This document shows, piece after piece, positions 48 to 30,391 of a stretch of DNA of 48,910 nt. The position numbers and the translations under genes are program-made. Below the pieces are notes generated by a model. It saw only the letters and a program-made list of their open reading frames with translations. It was not told the origin of the DNA and made no database searches. Source of the stretch: a bacterium (GTDB taxonomy: Bacteria; Patescibacteriota; Microgenomatia; Levybacterales; UBA12049); NCBI GenBank assembly GCA_021785915.1, contig JAJYEF010000001.1:1-48910 (forward strand), written 5' to 3'. Within the stretch, counting starts at the first letter, position 1, and every line of letters begins with the position of its first letter.

Positions 48-1820
48 TTATTTGATTACAAATTGTACATTTCCGTTTTGCGCCTCAATTTCTATTTTTT
101 TATTGCTTGAAAAAATTGTTTCTATAAAATTTACCGTTGGACTATTGTAATAAAGTCTTGCTTTTTGTAAGTCCTGGTTAGCGCTTTTATTATTGCCCTG
201 CATGTAATCCAAAAGCGCAAGGTCAAACCATATCGGGCCGTCTTTGGGAAACTTTCGCAGCGAAACGTTTTTAATAAAATCAATATTTTCGTCCCTGTTG
301 CCGTAAACAAGTGCAAGTGATGCGAGGTTTTCGTAAGGCAAGCTGTCCTGCCCGTACCTGAGGGCGCTAAGGTAAGCTTTTTTTGCCGCCGCGTAATCTC
401 CGAGTTTACTTTCAATCGCCCCTAAATTTGTATAATTTGTTATGTAAGGGAAAAGCGCTATTGATTTTAAGGCGTGTTCTTTTGCAAGCTGAAGTTTATT
501 TTGCGAATAATAGACCCTACTTATTATGTATTCTGCGTTGTATGAATCTTTGGAAACATTCGCGTCATGTGTTGCAAGCGTAAAATCGTTTCTGTAATCA
601 AAACTTCTTACAAATGTCCTAAGTGATAAAAGCGATACCAAAACTACAGAGATTATGACAACCCATTTACTGTTTTGTTTTAGTTTTAAAGTTGAAACAG
701 CAACGCCAATCATCCCCAAAACTCCGACTACCGGAAAATAAAACCAGCGGTCCGCGGCAGTCTGGTCCAAAGGATAAATTTGCAAGTGGAACATAACTCC
801 GATAATAAACCAGACAGCAAAAAACGTAAAAAGCCGGAGGTGCTTTTTCGGAAATTTTTTATATAAATAATACACGCTGGCAAATATTCCCCCAAGAATC
901 AATACGTCTATCAATAACGGAAGATAAAAATTATAAAATGTGATATTTGTATACGCCCACTGCCACGAGCCCGCTATATTAAGGGGGAATATAAAAGTCT
1001 TAACGTAAAAAAGAAAAATCGACGGAGCATTTATTAACCTGTGTGCTAGGTCAAGCCTTTCAATCGGCGCGTTGATAACAGTTTTAGGCGTCAGTCCTGT
1101 CGCATGTATTCTTAATATAATATATATCAAAAATGAAACAATTGATGTTCCAAGAAAGGGAAGAAATATTTTTCTTTTGTAAAGAAAAATATAAATTAAT
1201 GAAATAGCGAAAAAAAGTATCCCCGTTTCTTTAGAGAAAAGCGAAAGCAACAAAAGTGCCGATGCAAAAATTATTGCTTTAGGCGACTCACGTTTTAAAA
1301 GTATAAGAAAAGAACTTGCCCCGAAGAAGAAAAACAAGACCTCCTGCACATCTGCTATATAAAAAGCGGATTCTGCGTTTATTGGGTGCACGAGGAATAT
1401 CAGGGATAATATAAATGAAAGCCGCAAGTTAAAAAATTGCTTCAGTATGAAAAATAAAAGAATTGAGTTTGCGATAAATAACAGAAGCTGAACAAAGTGG
1501 AATAAAAAGGGTGTCGCGCCCGATATAGAATAAATAATAGTATAGGTTGTATCAAGCATGGGCTTGTAGTAAAGCCCGCCGAGCCTTGTCTTTCCCCCTA
1601 TATCAAGACGGTTACTGAAGAAAAAGGAGGGCACGTTTGAAAGTGATTGAATCGACGGGTTGTCTACTATTTGCGTATTGTCGTCGCCGACAAAATTGTT
1701 AAAAAGCCCAAAGAAAAAAATTATAAAACCTATTATTACCAAGAACGCGACTGCTTTTTTTGCCGTAAAAGGTACGAAGTAATGTTTAAAGTAGAGTTCT
1801 TCATCTTCCTGCGCACGCAT
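48..1820 (-). CDS. Polytopic GT-C-type (TMTC/PMT-like) glycosyltransferase with C-terminal TPR repeats
   Basis: 590-aa ORF with many hydrophobic segments. First-loop acidic motif FVGDDNTQIVDN resembles the DD motif of TMTC/PMT-type GT-C enzymes. DRWFYFP motif present. C-terminal ~170 aa has TPR-like repeats (LGDYAAAKKAYLSAL, PIWFDLALLDYMQGN). Confidence 0.6.
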   Translation of the reverse strand: MRAQEDEELYFKHYFVPFTAKKAVAFLVIIGFIIFFFGLFNNFVGDDNTQIVDNPSIQSLSNVPSFFFSNRLDIGGKTRLGGLYYKPMLDTTYTIIYSISGATPFLFHFVQLLLFIANSILLFFILKQFFNLRLSFILSLIFLVHPINAESAFYIADVQEVLFFFFGASSFLILLKRESPKAIIFASALLLLSLFSKETGILFFAISLIYIFLYKRKIFLPFLGTSIVSFLIYIILRIHATGLTPKTVINAPIERLDLAHRLINAPSIFLFYVKTFIFPLNIAGSWQWAYTNITFYNFYLPLLIDVLILGGIFASVYYLYKKFPKKHLRLFTFFAVWFIIGVMFHLQIYPLDQTAADRWFYFPVVGVLGMIGVAVSTLKLKQNSKWVVIISVVLVSLLSLRTFVRSFDYRNDFTLATHDANVSKDSYNAEYIISRVYYSQNKLQLAKEHALKSIALFPYITNYTNLGAIESKLGDYAAAKKAYLSALRYGQDSLPYENLASLALVYGNRDENIDFIKNVSLRKFPKDGPIWFDLALLDYMQGNNKSANQDLQKARLYYNSPTVNFIETIFSSNKKIEIEAQNGNVQFVIK

Positions 1821-1910: not shown

Positions 1911-3650
1911 ATGAATAATGAAGATAGTTCCTTTAAGAATTTATTCCTTCCGTTTACTTCAAAAAAGGCCGTATTCTGGATAATTTTACTTGGGTTTCTG
2001 GTTTTCTTTAACTCCCTTTTCGGACTACCCATATGGGACGATAATGTATATATTTTTTCCAACCAAAGCTTAAGTAATTTTAATTTCTTTTATCTTTTCG
2101 GTCAAAATGTCTATAACGTAGGCCAGTATTACCGCCCGCTGACTGCCGCTTACTTTTCCTTTCTTTTGAATTTATTCGGAAACACTTATTTTTTCTACCA
2201 TTTGATACAACTTTTGATGCACATAGCGAATACCGTTTTGGTATTTATATTCCTTAAAAAATTGCTCAAAAAGGAATTTGCTTTTTTTGCCGCACTTCTT
2301 TTTCTTGTACACCCTTTTCAGGTCGAATCTGTAGCCTGGATTTCCGGAAGCATCGTCCCGTTTTCCTTTTTATTTGGAATTTCCGGGCTTTTATTACTAA
2401 CAAGAAAAAAGCTTACTTACAAAGCCCTTTCCTTAAGTGCGTTTTTATTTCTTTTGTCAATCCTTTCCCGCGAAACGGGAATATTTTTTGTAGCCCTTGC
2501 TGTATGTTACATACTGCTTTTTAGAAAAGACGGTACTTTAAGAGTTTTTATTTACGGCGTGGTTTTATCTGTTGTATATTTGTTGATAAGACTTTCATTC
2601 CATATTACCTCATTAAGCGCAAACTACCCTTACCCTATTGATAGACTCGATTTTGCCCAAAGGCTTATTAACATCCCGCTTATTACTTTGTATTATGTCA
2701 GAAATCTTTTTATTCCCGACGCGCTTGCTACAGACCAGCAATGGGTGGTCAGATCAATCAACCTTCCTTACTTTTTTATTCCCCTTATTTTTGATTTCGT
2801 ATTCTTTGCTCTAATAGCTGCTGCCGGATTTTTTATATATAGAAAGGCGGAAGAAAATATAAAAAAATATTTTTTCTTTCTTATTTGGTTTTTACTCGGT
2901 TTTGGCATTTTATTCCAGATAGTTCCCCTTGATATGACGGTTGCGGACAGATGGATGTATTTCCCGCTCGTGGGGCTTTTGGGAATTTTGGGACTATTTG
3001 CGCAAACTTTTTCAAATAAATTTAAATTGCACGAAAACAAGGTTTTCCTTATTTTTATTCTTATGGCAGTCTTTTTTTCTGTTTTTACACTCGTAAGAAA
3101 CTCGCAGTGGAATAACTCCATTACGCTTTTTTCAAACGATATAAAAATAAACAATAATTTCGACGTCGAAAACCAGCTGGGCGCGGAGCTTGCGATACAA
3201 GGCAGGTACAAAGAGGCTCTGCCTATTCTGCTTGATTCGCACAAAAAAAACCTTGAAGACTCAAATATTTTCGATATAGCCGGATGCTATAAACAATTGG
3301 GTGATATAAAACTTGCGGAAAAGTATTACGAGGAAATTATAAATAACAAAGACAATATTAAAATACGCCCGGTTGTCAAACAAAACACATATAACGAAAT
3401 GGCAAAGCTTTTAATATTACACGAAGACCCCGAGGTAAATGCGGTATTTTTAAAAAGGGCCGTAAAGGAATATACCGCCAACTCTACGTTTTGGGCCTTC
3501 TACGCAATAACCGAGTATAATCTCGGGAACAAACCTGAAGCTTTGGCTTTTGCCAAAAATGCCTACGGTCTTAATCCCAACAACTCAACTAATCAACTTC
3601 TCCAAAATATAAAAGCAAACAAAGCGGCTCAATTAAAGCTCTTAAATTAG
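1911..3650 (+). CDS. Paralogous TMTC/PMT-like GT-C glycosyltransferase with C-terminal TPR repeats
   Basis: 579-aa ORF, collinear with the 48-1820 product: FLPFTSKKAV, PIWDDNVYIFSN, YYRPL, VESVAWISG, DRWMYFPLVG. TPR-like tail (LGDIKLAEKYYEEI). Transcribed divergently from its paralog. Confidence 0.6.
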   Translation: MNNEDSSFKNLFLPFTSKKAVFWIILLGFLVFFNSLFGLPIWDDNVYIFSNQSLSNFNFFYLFGQNVYNVGQYYRPLTAAYFSFLLNLFGNTYFFYHLIQLLMHIANTVLVFIFLKKLLKKEFAFFAALLFLVHPFQVESVAWISGSIVPFSFLFGISGLLLLTRKKLTYKALSLSAFLFLLSILSRETGIFFVALAVCYILLFRKDGTLRVFIYGVVLSVVYLLIRLSFHITSLSANYPYPIDRLDFAQRLINIPLITLYYVRNLFIPDALATDQQWVVRSINLPYFFIPLIFDFVFFALIAAAGFFIYRKAEENIKKYFFFLIWFLLGFGILFQIVPLDMTVADRWMYFPLVGLLGILGLFAQTFSNKFKLHENKVFLIFILMAVFFSVFTLVRNSQWNNSITLFSNDIKINNNFDVENQLGAELAIQGRYKEALPILLDSHKKNLEDSNIFDIAGCYKQLGDIKLAEKYYEEIINNKDNIKIRPVVKQNTYNEMAKLLILHEDPEVNAVFLKRAVKEYTANSTFWAFYAITEYNLGNKPEALAFAKNAYGLNPNNSTNQLLQNIKANKAAQLKLLN

Positions 3651-28974: not shown

Positions 28975-30066
28975 CTAATCTTTACTTGCAGTTTCTACCC
29001 CAACCTCAACGGGCGTCCCCGAAGTTTTACTTTTGTTAAGAATTTGCTCAACTATTTTTTTAGCTGTATCAGGTTTTTTCTGCAAGAAAAGTATTGCTGC
29101 CTGTTTTCCCTGACCAAGCATAAGATCGCCAAACTTGAAGAAGGCGCCGGACTTTTGGATTATTCCCATATCAACCCCAACGTCCATTATGCCCCCTTCC
29201 CTTGAAATACCCGTATCTCCATAAACATCAAATTCCGCAATCCTGAAGGGCGATGAAACTTTGTTTTTTACGATTTTCGCCCTGTGCCTTGATCCAATTA
29301 CCTTATCTGCCTCTTTAAGACTTTCAATTTTTCTTATGTCAATCCTTACGGATGAATAGAACTTTAATGCAAGACCGCCAGTTGTTGTTTCCGGGTTTCC
29401 AAACATTACTCCGATTTTTTGCCTCAGCTGATTTGTAAAAATAACTACGGTTTTAGATTTTGAAATAACAGCAGTTAATTTTCTCAGCGCCTGCGACATA
29501 AGCCTTGCTTGCAGACCCATTACCGCGTCTCCCATATCTCCTTCGATTTCGGCTCTCGGGACCAATGCTGCAACCGAGTCTATTACCAAAACGTCTATCC
29601 CGCCGCTTCTAATAAGGCTTTCGGCAATCTCCAATGCCTGTTCGCCGGTATCTGGCTGAGAAATCAAAAGATCGTCAAGCTTAACGCCAATTCTTTCCGC
29701 CCAAAGCGGATCAAGCGCGTGTTCGGCGTCTATGAAAGCCGCAACTCCTCCATGTTTTTGAGCCTGGGCGATGATTGAAAGACAAACCGTGGTTTTTCCG
29801 GAAGCTTCCGGGCCGTATATTTCGATTATCCTTCCTCTTGGCACTCCTCCTACTCCGAGCGCTAAATCTAAAGGAAGACAGCCTGTGGAAATGACAGAAA
29901 TATCAAGCTTTTCACCTATCTCGCCAAAACGCATGATGGAACCGCGTCCGTACTGTTTTTCGATTTGTTCCATCGCAAGCTTTACAGCTTCAAGCTTTTG
30001 AGAGTCTTTTGCTTGTCCATTGGGCAGTGGTTTTTCTTGCTTTTGAGACGAAGGGGTTCTTCCCAT
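28975..30066 (-). CDS. recA: Recombinase RecA
   Basis: 363 aa. Walker [28 protein letters not shown]2 loop [10 protein letters not shown]. Confidence 0.98.
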
Positions 30067-30117
30067 TTGTGCTTTTTATTGTAACAAGTTTTTTACCGTT
30101 TGCAAGTGGTAAATGTT

Positions 30118-30164
30118 TGGGCGGGGTGCCGAGAATTGACTTCGATCCACACACAACCTCGAAG
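30118..30164 (-). other. tRNA-like 3' half (degenerate T arm, acceptor 3' strand, discriminator, encoded CCA)
   Basis: The minus strand reads ...UCGAA-GUCAAUU-CUCGG-CACCCCG-C-CCA. It aligns column by column with the T arm and acceptor of the adjacent tRNA-Pro. CACCCCG is complementary to UGGGGUG at 30314-30320. Confidence 0.3.
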
Positions 30165-30266
30165 ATTCTGCAAAATTTCAGTCGGGGAACAGGGAATTGA
30201 ACCCAGACCGCACGCACCCCATGCGCGTATTCTACCGTTAAACTATTCCCCGAAATTTTGCAGAAT
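30165..30266. repeat. Perfect 15-bp inverted repeat bracketing tRNA-Pro
   Basis: attctgcaaaatttc at 30165-30179 is the exact reverse complement of gaaattttgcagaat at 30252-30266. Confidence 0.9.
30182..30252 (-). tRNA. tRNA-Pro (anticodon GGG), CCA not encoded
   Basis: Reverse complement: CGGGGAA-UA-GUUU-AACGGUA-GAAU-A-CGCGC-AUGGGGU-GCGUG-CGGU-CUGGG-UUCAAUU-CCCUG-UUCCCCG-A. 7-bp acceptor stem, U33, G37, GG in the D loop, UUCAAUU T loop, one U-U mismatch in the T stem. Confidence 0.85.
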
Positions 30267-30320
30267 TATGCGCATCACGCTTTAGGTGACTATCGCATTC
30301 CGCCGATAAACTACACCCCA
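30267..30320 (-). other. tRNA-like 5' half (acceptor 5' strand and D arm) followed by an irregular hairpin
   Basis: The minus strand reads UGGGGUG-UA-GUUU-AUCGGCG-GAAU-G, parallel to the tRNA-Pro 5' part. It is followed by AUGCG-AUA-GUCAC-CUAAAGC-GUGAU-G-CGCAU. TATAAT lies about 20 nt upstream. Confidence 0.3.
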
Positions 30321-30391
30321 AAAATTACTTATATATTATATAACATCGAGGCTTTATTTTTAAACTCAAAATGATACAATAGAAAATTGTT

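Follow-up and report, generated by a model that had tools for sequence, protein, structure and literature searches.

A 'Russian-doll' tRNA-Pro(GGG) locus beside recA in a CPR bacterium, read as a resident gene perhaps interrupted by a palindrome-ended replacement cassette

The stretch of DNA considered here (the window, all 48,910 nucleotides of it) comes from a Levybacteria-like member of the CPR, the ultrasmall bacteria or Patescibacteria. On its minus strand, with a polyprenyl synthase and recA as neighbors, a complete tRNA-Pro(GGG) gene lies between the arms of an inverted repeat, and the arms lie in turn between two fragments of tRNA-Pro. A preliminary description had read this nest as a five-part layout, and all five parts match when the coordinates are read again. 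The features, in the direction of transcription, are these:

30372 to 30386, minus strand: TTTTCTATTGTATCA, a 13/15 inverted repeat of 30073-30086 (TGTTACAATAAAAA), from self-comparison
30364-30359, minus strand: -35-like TTTAAA of the outer tRNA-Pro promoter (promoter scan)
30335 to 30340, minus strand: TATAAT, -10 box of the promoter of the original, outer tRNA-Pro (promoter scan, 10/12 match); the upstream DNA here aligns with that ahead of the plain tRNA-Pro of relative L169
30294 to 30320, minus strand: outer 5' relic, UGGGGUG-UA-GUUU-AUCGGCG-GAAU-GCG, tRNA-Pro(GGG) positions 1-28 (acceptor 5' strand, D arm, start of the anticodon stem)
30268 to 30298, minus strand: irregular hairpin AUGCG-AUA-GUCAC-CUAAAGC-GUGAU-G-CGCAU, from the sequence, the minimum-free-energy fold and comparison with the L177 junction
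30293-30271, minus strand: window-specific insertion of about 23 nt between the direct repeats GA(A)UGCG, absent in L177
30252 to 30266, minus strand: left arm, ATTCTGCAAAATTTC, of a 15-bp inverted repeat without mismatch; forms the 5' leader of the inner tRNA, whose position 1 is the final C of the arm
30182 to 30252, minus strand: inner intact tRNA-Pro(GGG) (ARAGORN; Rfam RF00005), CCA not encoded, T-stem mismatch U50·U64
30165 to 30179, minus strand: right arm of the inverted repeat, GAAATTTTGCAGAAT, exact reverse complement of the left arm, beginning 2 nt past the ARAGORN tRNA end at 30181
30118 to 30158, minus strand: outer 3' relic, 31/37 aligned to the L169 tRNA-Pro, 23/28 over T arm and acceptor, profile positions 40-70
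within the outer 3' relic, minus strand: anticodon-loop remnant and stem 3' strand GGUUGUGUG, then the variable loop UGGA
30145-30129, minus strand: degenerate T arm UCGAA-GUCAAUU-CUCGG
30128-30122, minus strand: acceptor 3' strand CACCCCG, then C, then CCA at 30120-30118
30105-30078, minus strand: recA promoter-like TTGCAA-16-TACAAT (promoter scan)
28975 to 30066, minus strand: recA, the syntenic anchor for finding orthologous loci

ARAGORN calls the inner gene Pro(GGG) at 30181-30252, and for 30182-30252 Rfam RF00005 gives 52.9 bits, where its gathering score is 29 (E = 1e-10), in support of the earlier reading of a tRNA-Pro(GGG) without an encoded CCA. As judged from sequence, it is shown to be the only intact, functional-looking tRNA at the locus. 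A phage origin was considered for it and rejected; viral contigs gave no match. Nor does the region upstream of it appear to be a duplicated outer promoter: TAAAGCGTGATG and TAAAGCCTCGATG reach a local score of only 7.5, and this idea was dropped because alignment to GAAUGCGCGCAUGG of the nearest relative, L177, fits that region better.

The two arms (30266-30252 and 30179-30165) are exactly complementary, as had been claimed of them. Within the 48.9-kb window the 15-mer occurs once per strand and has no further copy, and no target-site duplication is seen at the window's junctions. The helix that leader and trailer had been expected to form is predicted at 15 bp and -16.6 kcal/mol (z = -3.6), and the minimum-free-energy structure of the locus closes both this helix and the outer acceptor stem (-72.5 kcal/mol, z = -2.67). 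RNase III-type processing stems span at least about 11-20 bp between flanks, a range into which the 15 bp fall. Among recA-linked loci, the leader/trailer duplexes of three nests (the window, L177 and L172) have energies of -28.6, -21.5 and -16.6 kcal/mol, the last being the window's, while every such duplex in the un-nested tRNA-Pro genes of relatives comes to -9.8 kcal/mol or weaker.

The outer halves are called neither by ARAGORN nor by Rfam, and the tRNA-Pro profile finds them singly at E values of only 6.5 and 0.75. They are therefore identified by their collinear alignment with the plain tRNA-Pro gene and promoter of L169: 96 columns cover the promoter and 5' part, and 31/37 positions agree in the 3' part. 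The 5' relic, which matches profile positions 2-26, is identical to the tRNA-Pro of L169 and of L177 at 24 of 27 positions. By this alignment the outer halves are shown to be homologous to the plain tRNA-Pro gene of relatives. The "second tRNA-like molecule" of the preliminary description is thus tRNA-derived, as proposed, but it belongs to no other tRNA: it is tRNA-Pro(GGG) once more, in a decayed copy. The TATAAT box reported upstream of it was located at 30340-30335.

The outer copy carries A53·C61, G54, U1·G72 and a C as discriminator, and its anticodon stem is gone; T arm and discriminator are mutated where the tRNA-Pro genes of relatives are conserved. The degenerate T arm with its G54 and the want of a canonical anticodon arm had both been remarked upon, correctly; the 23-nt insertion breaks up the anticodon stem in its 5' strand. 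It is not detectable as a functional tRNA, has neither G53-C61 nor T54 nor a 5-bp anticodon stem, and under ARAGORN yields no tRNA after any in-silico excision within the tested ranges. The old 5' half ends with GCGCAUAA (30273-30266), the counterpart of GCGCGCAUGG in L177; a -10-like CATAAT box from the promoter scan (30270-30265) pairs with TAGTCA at 30292-30287. The CUAAAGC hairpin was tried as an anticodon arm (Phe AAA) and rejected: it sits inside the 5' strand of the old anticodon stem, and L177 lacks it, its GAAUGCGCGCAUGG leading directly into the repeat.

Close relatives were gathered by exact-protein look-ups. About 30 recA-linked relatives have one plain, uninterrupted tRNA-Pro(GGG) each; among the recA-linked loci, collinear partial tRNA-Pro matches flank an intact tRNA-Pro only in the window, L177 and L172. 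In L180, an HNH_repeat open reading frame was examined as a possible homing endonuclease inside tRNA-Pro and rejected; the tRNA there is whole, if odd in its T loop, and the frame simply comes after it.

The most informative relative is L177, the window's nearest, a sister lineage whose RecA is 92% identical and which is its mutual nearest neighbor. Its nest has the same outer and inner tRNA types, with inner tRNAs identical at 69 of 71 positions, and all of its outer arms are intact. Here, the insert starts after AUGG, is bounded by a perfect 11-bp repeat of different sequence from the window's, and is closed by the outer anticodon stem GCGCGCAU/AUGCGUGC. When the two repeats are aligned, 5 of 11 pairs have changed in both arms and every pair is preserved. 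It does look as though the repeat helix is being maintained, since it is kept in other sequence in L177 and since a G·U-containing helix surrounds the inner tRNA of L172. The proposal that a tRNA gene had been split by a tRNA-Pro cassette bounded by inverted repeats fits the plain relatives, the L169 alignment and the L177 nest alike.

The recA genes of the window and L177 differ at 58% of four-fold sites. Against the plain L169 gene, the outer halves show 0/27 and 2/28 differences in L177, and 8/55 in the window. Neutral DNA, by this yardstick, would have diverged far more than the outer halves have. This, in turn, calls either for a recent or horizontal spread of the cassette, or for some residual function of the outer tRNA.

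The locus has a history of its own. recA starts at 30066, on the same strand and 51 nt beyond the nest (50 nt in the preliminary description). In most relatives compared at this locus the tRNA is on the opposite strand; the orientation of the tRNA block relative to recA is flipped in the window, L001, L175, L178 and L092. TTTTCTATTGTATCA and TGTTACAATAAAAA are the divergent promoter regions on either side of the block, and they are candidates for the ends of an inversion that turned it toward recA.

Nests are not confined to this locus. A pattern scan of 185,579 species genomes, made with a CPR-type motif that is biased toward CPR D arms, gave 84 loci, mostly labelled as CPR lineages, of which 30 have the full nest. 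A 5' partial copy lies just upstream of 74 tRNAs, in 68 of 80 analysed loci. The 5' relics run from tRNA position 1 to 25-37 and the detected 3' relics mostly begin at 33-46, so that the breakpoints fall in the anticodon-/T-loop region. The nested tRNAs include Pro, Gly, Thr, His, Ile and Val, and some nests are three levels deep, as in L184, where all three tRNAs have perfect arms. The inner tRNA reads the same amino acid in the nests examined, usually with the same anticodon; the levels differ in L191 and L234. Complementary arms bracket 51% of the inner tRNAs in the CPR set. A control scan with a universal D-arm motif, across phyla, found among the matches listed that 5' tRNA fragments lie upstream of intact tRNAs in all phyla, with flanking repeats in 5.9% (the background, against the 51%). 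Thirty-eight surveyed loci have strong arms, beside the terminal inverted repeats of 15 bp in the window and 11 bp in L177. The preliminary description had held that background scores for the outer halves under covariance models, or plain tRNA-Pro genes in relatives, would count against it. Both hold in part: the halves do score at background and most relatives do have a plain gene, yet the nest recurs in other lineages.

In 20 of 36 loci the outer acceptor stem has all its pairs (7/7), and between inner and outer acceptor stems there are 32 compensated pairs, spread over 17 of the 36; the inner gene is therefore usually a different allele, while in L203, L212, L214, L245 and L256 outer and inner tRNAs are the same. 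Excision of the insert in silico restores 43 of 73 outer copies (26 of them with the inner tRNA's anticodon) and leaves 30 that cannot be restored. Because ARAGORN is permissive and accepts many boundary pairs, only this restorable/not-restorable outcome was used. The range looks like a spread of ages. Mismatches in the helices are G·U in 26 cases and A·C in 13 (p = 0.053, only suggestive), a lean that hints at constraint on an RNA and not purely on a DNA repeat.

Cargo-less hairpins with similar termini occur in outer T loops or variable regions, as in L227 (CTTG|CCCCCACACCAAAATTTTTGGTGTGGGGG|CTTG). Arms of like motif turn up in distant CPR classes and with different tRNA identities. Some families show a 4-nt CAAG or CTTG repeat, and the window's junctions have no duplication; junctions vary among lineages, and neither a target-site duplication nor a unique end consensus could be defined across the survey. 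Within 3 kb of 67 nests, no recombinase, transposase, integrase or homing endonuclease recurs. The commonest neighbor of the nests is a CCA-adding-enzyme-like gene. Inserts measure about 100-230 nt; that between the window's halves is about 135 nt and mostly tRNA. A group I intron in the anticodon loop was looked for as well, and rejected: no covariance match appeared up to E = 10, and such introns need at least about 200 nt.

On balance, these observations lean toward a palindrome-ended cassette that brought a replacement tRNA into the resident tRNA-Pro(GGG) and left a decaying "Russian-doll" gene. Here, the anticodon loop of the resident gene would have been broken past nucleotide 35 or so by an insert in which two repeat arms, left and right, enclose a complete tRNA-Pro(GGG) of another allele. 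Such a cassette would belong to a family of palindrome-ended insertion elements, with arms that typically would start C-rich and end G-rich (CCCCGCACCAAA...UUUGGUGCGGGG or CCUGCCCGCC...GGCAGGCGGG), and that would enter exposed loops of tRNA genes: the anticodon loop, the variable-region boundary and the T loop. Insertion would, of course, kill the target gene. It would survive only with replacement cargo of the same anticodon, or in an outer copy already dead, a rule that would explain the matching anticodons, the multi-level nests and the cargo-less hairpins in outer copies. The window's cassette would have been tolerated because it carries a replacement tRNA.

Expression may be pictured in similar terms. 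A precursor would be transcribed from the old TATAAT promoter, and possibly also from the internal CATAAT; in it, the inner acceptor stem would be extended by the stacked 15-bp leader/trailer helix. Release of the tRNA-Pro would then take RNase P, 3' trimming and a nuclease specific for double strands, and the outer halves would be by-products. The machinery of mobility is purely a postulate, since no transposase, integrase or homing endonuclease was found beside the window's nest and none recurs near the 67 nests. The want of a target-site duplication, of a common end consensus and of a second arm copy in the window also tells against this reading, as do the conservation of the outer halves and the lean toward G·U.

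A different outcome for the outer halves deserves weight, although it is an unlikely one. The nested precursor might be a protein-spliced tRNA intron in a bacterium, from which an endonuclease excises arm, tRNA and arm, and in which a ligase such as RtcB joins the halves. Both tRNAs would then mature, the repeat helix and the outer anticodon stem would form the substrate, and the window would since have lost its outer tRNA. L177 speaks for this, for its outer tRNA keeps every arm, the insert-closing anticodon stem included, and its halves are conserved like a functional tRNA despite the divergence of about 58% at recA four-fold sites. So do the 26 outer copies restorable precisely to the same anticodon, the perfect arms throughout the triple nest of L184, and the excess of G·U over A·C; the layout, moreover, formally resembles archaeal split or intron-containing tRNAs. 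However, an inner tRNA for the same amino acid, usually with the same anticodon, would be needless were the intron spliced, and 30 of the 73 outer copies, the window's included, cannot give a tRNA. No 3-4-3 bulge-helix-bulge can be drawn at the junctions of the window, L177, L184 or L212, by folds and manual inspection; the insertion site is about 35/36 where the canonical one is 37/38; junction sequences vary; and the T loop and variable loop of outer copies pick up additional hairpins. The literature searched gave no splicing endonuclease or ligase in the CPR, and we know of none.

Less probable still is a scar of integration, in which a larger element with its own tRNA-Pro entered the anticodon loop and was later deleted down to a tRNA between palindromic att arms. 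The anticodon loop of a tRNA is the classic attB position, and the breakpoints do lie within it. In L184 the joined ends would form an att-like palindrome, GGTGCGGGG-CAAG-CCCCGCACC, whose 4-nt core is shared with the target loop, and in other phyla 5' and 3' tRNA fragments are common beside intact tRNAs. But an integrase island has an integrase and an element body between attL and attR, and only a tRNA lies between the window's halves; in roughly 70 nests, no integrase or element genes lie between the halves, whose inserts are short. Classical integration regenerates the tRNA and leaves one relic, not both halves around a complete gene, and independent reduction to one minimal layout in dozens of lineages would be surprising.

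It is just as improbable that the locus arose without any mobile element, by template switching or duplication at cloverleaf-forming tDNA. Here, a tRNA gene would have been copied into itself, making the inverted leader/trailer copy, and the halves would be duplication debris. The five loci with identical outer and inner tRNAs would suit such a history, as would a tRNA block that is prone to rearrangement in this clade, given its flips relative to recA. The compensated acceptor-stem changes argue against it, however, as do the 7 of 27 positions at which the window's inner and outer 5' parts differ, the likeness of arm motifs across distant classes and tRNA identities, and the leaders and trailers of plain tRNAs, which are not complementary.

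That a metagenome assembly merged two strain alleles of tRNA-Pro is scarcely credible: the window comes from a metagenome-assembled genome, but ten contigs have an identical recA and similar neighbors, the architecture occurs in independent assemblies that include the complete genome CP011213.1 and the chromosome-level OZ244961.1, and a perfect inverted repeat with ordered halves is not typical of de Bruijn graph error.

The replacement cassette thus remains the favored reading. Nests of this kind are invisible in current annotation because tRNA finders report the inner gene only, and the literature searched gave no description of nested, split or intron-containing tRNAs in the CPR. The nests are a mark of frequent tRNA-gene turnover in bacteria whose genomes are minimal. 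A bolder statement can be offered tentatively, as a possibility on the doubtful side: that the CPR have a hitherto unrecognized system, acting on RNA or on DNA, that places a complete tRNA in the anticodon loop of another and matures both from one precursor (the inner excised, the outer halves religated), or else new selfish "replacement" elements that spread at the cost of the resident tRNA gene, destroying it and putting their own in its place. Should the cassettes prove mobile, they would represent a new tRNA-targeting element that survives by replacing the gene it destroys, and a ready marker of horizontal exchange among the CPR. Splicing of outer copies, if it occurs, would be the first case in Bacteria of tRNA splicing that depends on protein, the intron itself being a tRNA, and would bear on the origin of split and intron-containing tRNAs.

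Known systems share parts of this architecture. MITE-like and REPIN-like elements are short and non-autonomous and have terminal inverted repeats. The nest cassettes are likewise short and end in inverted repeats, and cargo-less forms occur (L227); unlike those elements, they strongly prefer the loops of tRNA genes, carry tRNA cargo, and show neither a consistent target-site duplication nor a cognate transposase.

Tyrosine integrases show sublocation preference, and islands use anticodon-loop or T-loop sequences of tRNA genes as attB. With such integrative elements the nests have in common the tRNA-gene target, breakpoints in the anticodon loop (sometimes the T loop), relic fragments and the keeping of a working tRNA. 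They differ in an insert of about 100-230 nt without integrase, in carrying a complete tRNA rather than its 3' part, in having both target halves flank the insert, and in the mutual complementarity of the insert's two ends.

Archaeal tRNA introns and split or permuted tRNA genes are bulge-helix-bulge substrates of the splicing endonuclease (PMC4090602, PMC3978253). There, as here, the tRNA is broken at or close to the anticodon loop, the inner ends of the two halves adjoin sequences complementary to one another, extra insertions occupy the non-canonical T loop or variable region, and related inserts occur in different tRNAs. The nests, in contrast, have a bacterial host, a site at about 35/36 instead of 37/38, no drawable 3-4-3 bulge-helix-bulge, a full tRNA for the same amino acid as the "intron," and many outer copies that are clearly dead.

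The intervening sequences of rRNA genes are short stem-loop insertions that RNase III excises without ligation in bacteria and the CPR; in the CPR they are very frequent, if sporadic, and the account makes no mention of tRNA (PMC11270868). These, too, are short, non-coding, helix-forming insertions at loops of structural RNA genes. Fragmented rRNA works, however; a cut in the anticodon loop leaves a tRNA unable to decode, and the nest insert carries a replacement gene.

In rRNA operons, leader/trailer stems with RNase III sites bracket 16S and 23S. To our knowledge, such processing stems are not known for single bacterial tRNAs, and unlike the nests, the plain tRNA-Pro genes of relatives have no leader/trailer stem. 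The leader/trailer helices of the nests suggest an rRNA-like processing route for a tRNA and a link to the abundant, unexplained insertions in CPR rRNA genes; like the rRNA stems, they are long helices between the immediate 5' and 3' flanks of a mature RNA.

On the minus strand, the nest has exactly the five-part layout that the preliminary description gave it. The parts, with two -10-like boxes, are as follows.

30340-30335: TATAAT, the -10 box ahead of the outer 5' part
30320-30294, minus strand: outer 5' part, UGGGGUG-UA-GUUU-AUCGGCG-GAAU-GCG
30298-30268, minus strand: irregular hairpin
30270-30265: CATAAT, a second -10-like box, immediately 5' of the inner tRNA
30266-30252, minus strand: left repeat arm, ATTCTGCAAAATTTC
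30252-30182, minus strand: inner tRNA-Pro(GGG), by ARAGORN and Rfam
30179-30165, minus strand: right repeat arm, exact reverse complement of the left arm
30145-30118, minus strand: outer 3' part, a stretch with terminal UCGAA-GUCAAUU-CUCGG-CACCCCG-C-CCA

Each strand of the 48.9-kb window has a single copy of the arm 15-mer. The minimum free energy structure of the locus, at -72.5 kcal/mol (z = -2.67), contains both the repeat helix and a closed outer acceptor stem. As had been described, recA lies downstream, its start 51 nt away, and the TATAAT box lies upstream of the outer 5' part. ARAGORN and Rfam call the inner tRNA (52.9 bits against an Rfam threshold of 29) but leave the outer halves uncalled. 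In the T stem of the inner tRNA (30182-30252), CUGGG/CCCUG, U50·U64 is a mismatch.

By alignment, the outer halves are what is left of the tRNA-Pro(GGG) gene resident at this site. The plain tRNA of L169, a relative (RecA 90%), is CGGGGTGTAGTTTATCGGTAGAATGCGCGCATGGGGTGCGTGTGGGCCGAGTTCAATTCTCGGCACCCCGA; the outer 5' part matches it at 24 of 27 positions and the outer 3' part at 31 of 37, and the sequence ahead of the outer 5' part, TATAAT included, can be aligned with the upstream flank of the L169 tRNA. These alignments are the grounds for the identification, and they mean that the promoter of the old gene and both its halves are still present. The copy is damaged: it carries U1·G72, A53·C61, G54 and a discriminator C, and it has lost its anticodon stem. 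The irregular hairpin is an extra 23 nt set between direct repeats GA(A)UGCG, and the related nest L177 lacks it. The second tRNA-like molecule first reported here is indeed tRNA-derived, but it is a dying tRNA-Pro gene, not a functional second tRNA.

By RecA protein, the window belongs to Candidatus Levybacteria (CPR/Patescibacteria). In about 30 relatives (RecA 70-92% identical), one plain tRNA-Pro(GGG) adjoins recA, mostly on the opposite strand and directly upstream of a polyprenyl synthase gene; neither the flanking repeat nor the halves are found at these loci. A search with a tRNA-Pro profile built from 33 relatives' tRNAs returned collinear partial matches on both sides of an intact tRNA only in the window, L177 and L172, the last from another Levybacteria branch. 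The window's tRNA-Pro and the old promoter are inverted relative to recA when compared with most relatives, and two divergent promoter regions (30386-30372 and 30086-30073) form a 13/15 inverted repeat around the tRNA block. Strand variation among relatives, together with this flanking repeat, suggests that the tRNA gene has undergone small inversions more than once. The orientation is also switched in L001, L175, L178 and L092. In locus L180, a tRNA-Pro(GGG) (1070-1150, minus strand) has an aberrant T loop, GGCGGAA, and no ARAGORN call; an ORF with HNH_repeat domains (225-1109, minus strand) directly follows it, at the site held in relatives by a prenyl or polyprenyl synthesis gene.

The window and L177 are mutual nearest neighbours by RecA (92%), and L177 is a fresher version of the window's nest. 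It runs from the outer 5' half through TCCCGCACTAA, the inner tRNA and TTAGTGCGGGA to the 3' side of the outer anticodon stem. Its 5' half, ending in AUGG, is identical to positions 1-35 of L169; its outer T arm is perfect, as is the 3' strand of the outer acceptor, and its inner tRNA, with a fully paired T stem (CUGGG/CCCAG), is identical to the window's at 69 of 71 positions. The variable region of the outer copy holds a hairpin of ~75 nt. In our own, modestly supported alignment, anchored at the outer ends, the two repeat helices have 6 of 11 pairs in common; the remaining 5 are changed on both strands and none is broken. The helix flanking the inner tRNA of L172 has G·U pairs and a bulge. 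The leader/trailer duplex amounts to -28.6 kcal/mol in L172, -21.5 kcal/mol in L177 and -16.6 kcal/mol in the window, against -9.8 kcal/mol or weaker at every plain tRNA locus, and this sets the three nests apart.

A scan of 185,579 species, one genome each, for pairs of CPR-type D-arm motifs separated by 25-55 nt (a spacing impossible for tandem genes) gave 84 loci, most labelled as CPR lineages, including Saccharibacteria, Parcubacteria/Paceibacterota, and Yonath-, Falkow-, Nomura-, Wolfe-, Uhr-, Berkel-, Morani-, Kaiser-, Woese- and Roizmanbacteria. There, a 5' fragment of the same tRNA (positions 1 to 25-37) precedes intact tRNAs for Pro (GGG, UGG, CGG), Gly (CCC, UCC), Thr, His, Trp, Ile, Gln, Val and Ala, and behind many of the intact tRNAs comes a 3' fragment that begins at position 33-46. 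In 20 of the 36 loci whose 3' ends can be aligned, the outer acceptor stem pairs along its full length, and 17 of those 36 hold 32 compensated pairs between outer and inner stems; the two copies are therefore usually different alleles. Strong complementary arms occur at 38 loci. Arms are commonly C-rich at the start and G-rich at the end, and similar ones turn up in different classes and with different tRNA identities. One nest, L201, is located in a T loop. Eight genome bins (L002, L004, L172, L176, L183, L231, L360, L383) have Levybacteria-like recA or CPR-type tRNAs, so their labels ("TPA_asm uncultured Gammaproteobacteria", "Pseudomonadales", "Bdellovibrionales") look unreliable. Within ±3 kb of 67 nests, the commonest neighbouring ORF family looks by eye like a CCA-adding enzyme/poly(A) polymerase (10 loci), and a YraN-like small endonuclease family occurs at 5 loci.

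As a control, the universal D-arm motif TAGCTCAG..GG.AGAGC gave at least 120 loci from all phyla (L265-L384). Among the control matches listed, 5' fragments upstream of intact tRNAs are common, and 5.9% of such tRNAs have flanking repeats, which is background, versus 51% in the CPR set. At least four full nests are present: L266, L269 (CPR), L383 (unreliable TPA_asm label) and L356 (Anaerotruncus, weak score). In this survey, the architecture is almost confined to CPR genomes. Non-CPR 5' fragments, 25-55 nt upstream of the intact copy and with neither inverted repeats nor 3' halves (for example Clostridia tRNA-Phe in L272, L278, L363 and L365; Acidobacteria tRNA-Thr in L314 and L320), may be integration or gene-replacement scars.

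Nests can also be nested. In L184 (VMTK01000019.1, Falkowbacteria; minus strand of an 8-kb locus, the nest starting ~125 nt from the reverse-strand start), three distinct tRNA-Gly(CCC), all arms intact, form a clean nest with three levels. The joints at each level read UUCCCAAG|CCCCGCACCAAAU...AUUUGGUGCGGGG|CAAGG, near-identical junctions of the form CAAG|CCCCGCACCAAAU...AUUUGGUGCGGGG|CAAG. In L255 (JBDRCJ010000109.1, ~2731-3100, plus strand), two 5' relics precede an innermost tRNA-Pro(GGG) that has two cargo-less hairpins, one in its variable region and one in its T loop, and no ARAGORN call; either this isoacceptor is dispensable there or the RNA loses both inserts. In L234, L251, L227 and L177 (425-560), outer copies also contain cargo-less palindromes, in the T loop or the variable region, with termini matching the arms that bracket inner tRNAs elsewhere. 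In L234 (JAUSES010000029.1), 3' of the inner tRNA, one reads GAGTTC|CCTGCCCGCC...GGCAGGCGGG|GATTC, and L227 has a free-standing copy downstream, CTTG|CCCCCACACCAAAATTTTTGGTGTGGGGG|CTTG. In L192 (CAYGDO010000001.1, minus strand, ~2148 of the reversed locus), a long insert, a candidate group I intron by the look of its sequence, comes after a tRNA-Phe-like 5' half (…CTGAA|TC…).

Are nests relics, or do they function? In those examined, the inner tRNA has the same amino acid as the outer and mostly the same anticodon; of 73 outer copies, 30 (including that of the window) are beyond restoration by any excision tried, while 43 are restorable, 26 of them with the inner anticodon; further insertions accumulate in outer copies; and no bulge-helix-bulge motif is evident in the nests. 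All this is evidence for a relic. Conversely, the window, L177, L169 and L178 diverge by 55-63% at four-fold sites of recA, while the outer halves depart from the plain gene at only 2 of 55 positions in L177 and 8 of 55 in the window, and helix mismatches are more often G·U (26) than A·C (13; p = 0.053). This, in turn, is evidence for function, or at least youth. On the simplest reconciliation, cassettes would have entered intact resident genes by recent horizontal spread, and those genes would then have decayed; the window would be an older case than L177. Of two candidate mechanisms, a mobile replacement cassette and true nested splicing, the first is preferred. The original suggestion of a tRNA gene split by a cassette of tRNA-Pro bounded by inverted repeats was essentially right. 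The nests, compared within 3 kb on either side at 67 loci, show no associated recombinase, transposase or endonuclease.

Full-text searches of a library with few subscription journals turned up no account of tRNA genes nested in this way in CPR. The architecture is apparently undescribed as well as recurrent, the window being one decayed instance. rRNA intervening sequences are frequent in CPR, in an account that does not mention tRNA (PMC11270868). Nests have features in common with these intervening sequences, with integrase targeting of tRNA anticodon loops, with archaeal introns and split tRNAs, and with MITE-like palindromic elements, but each comparison fails on a defining test.
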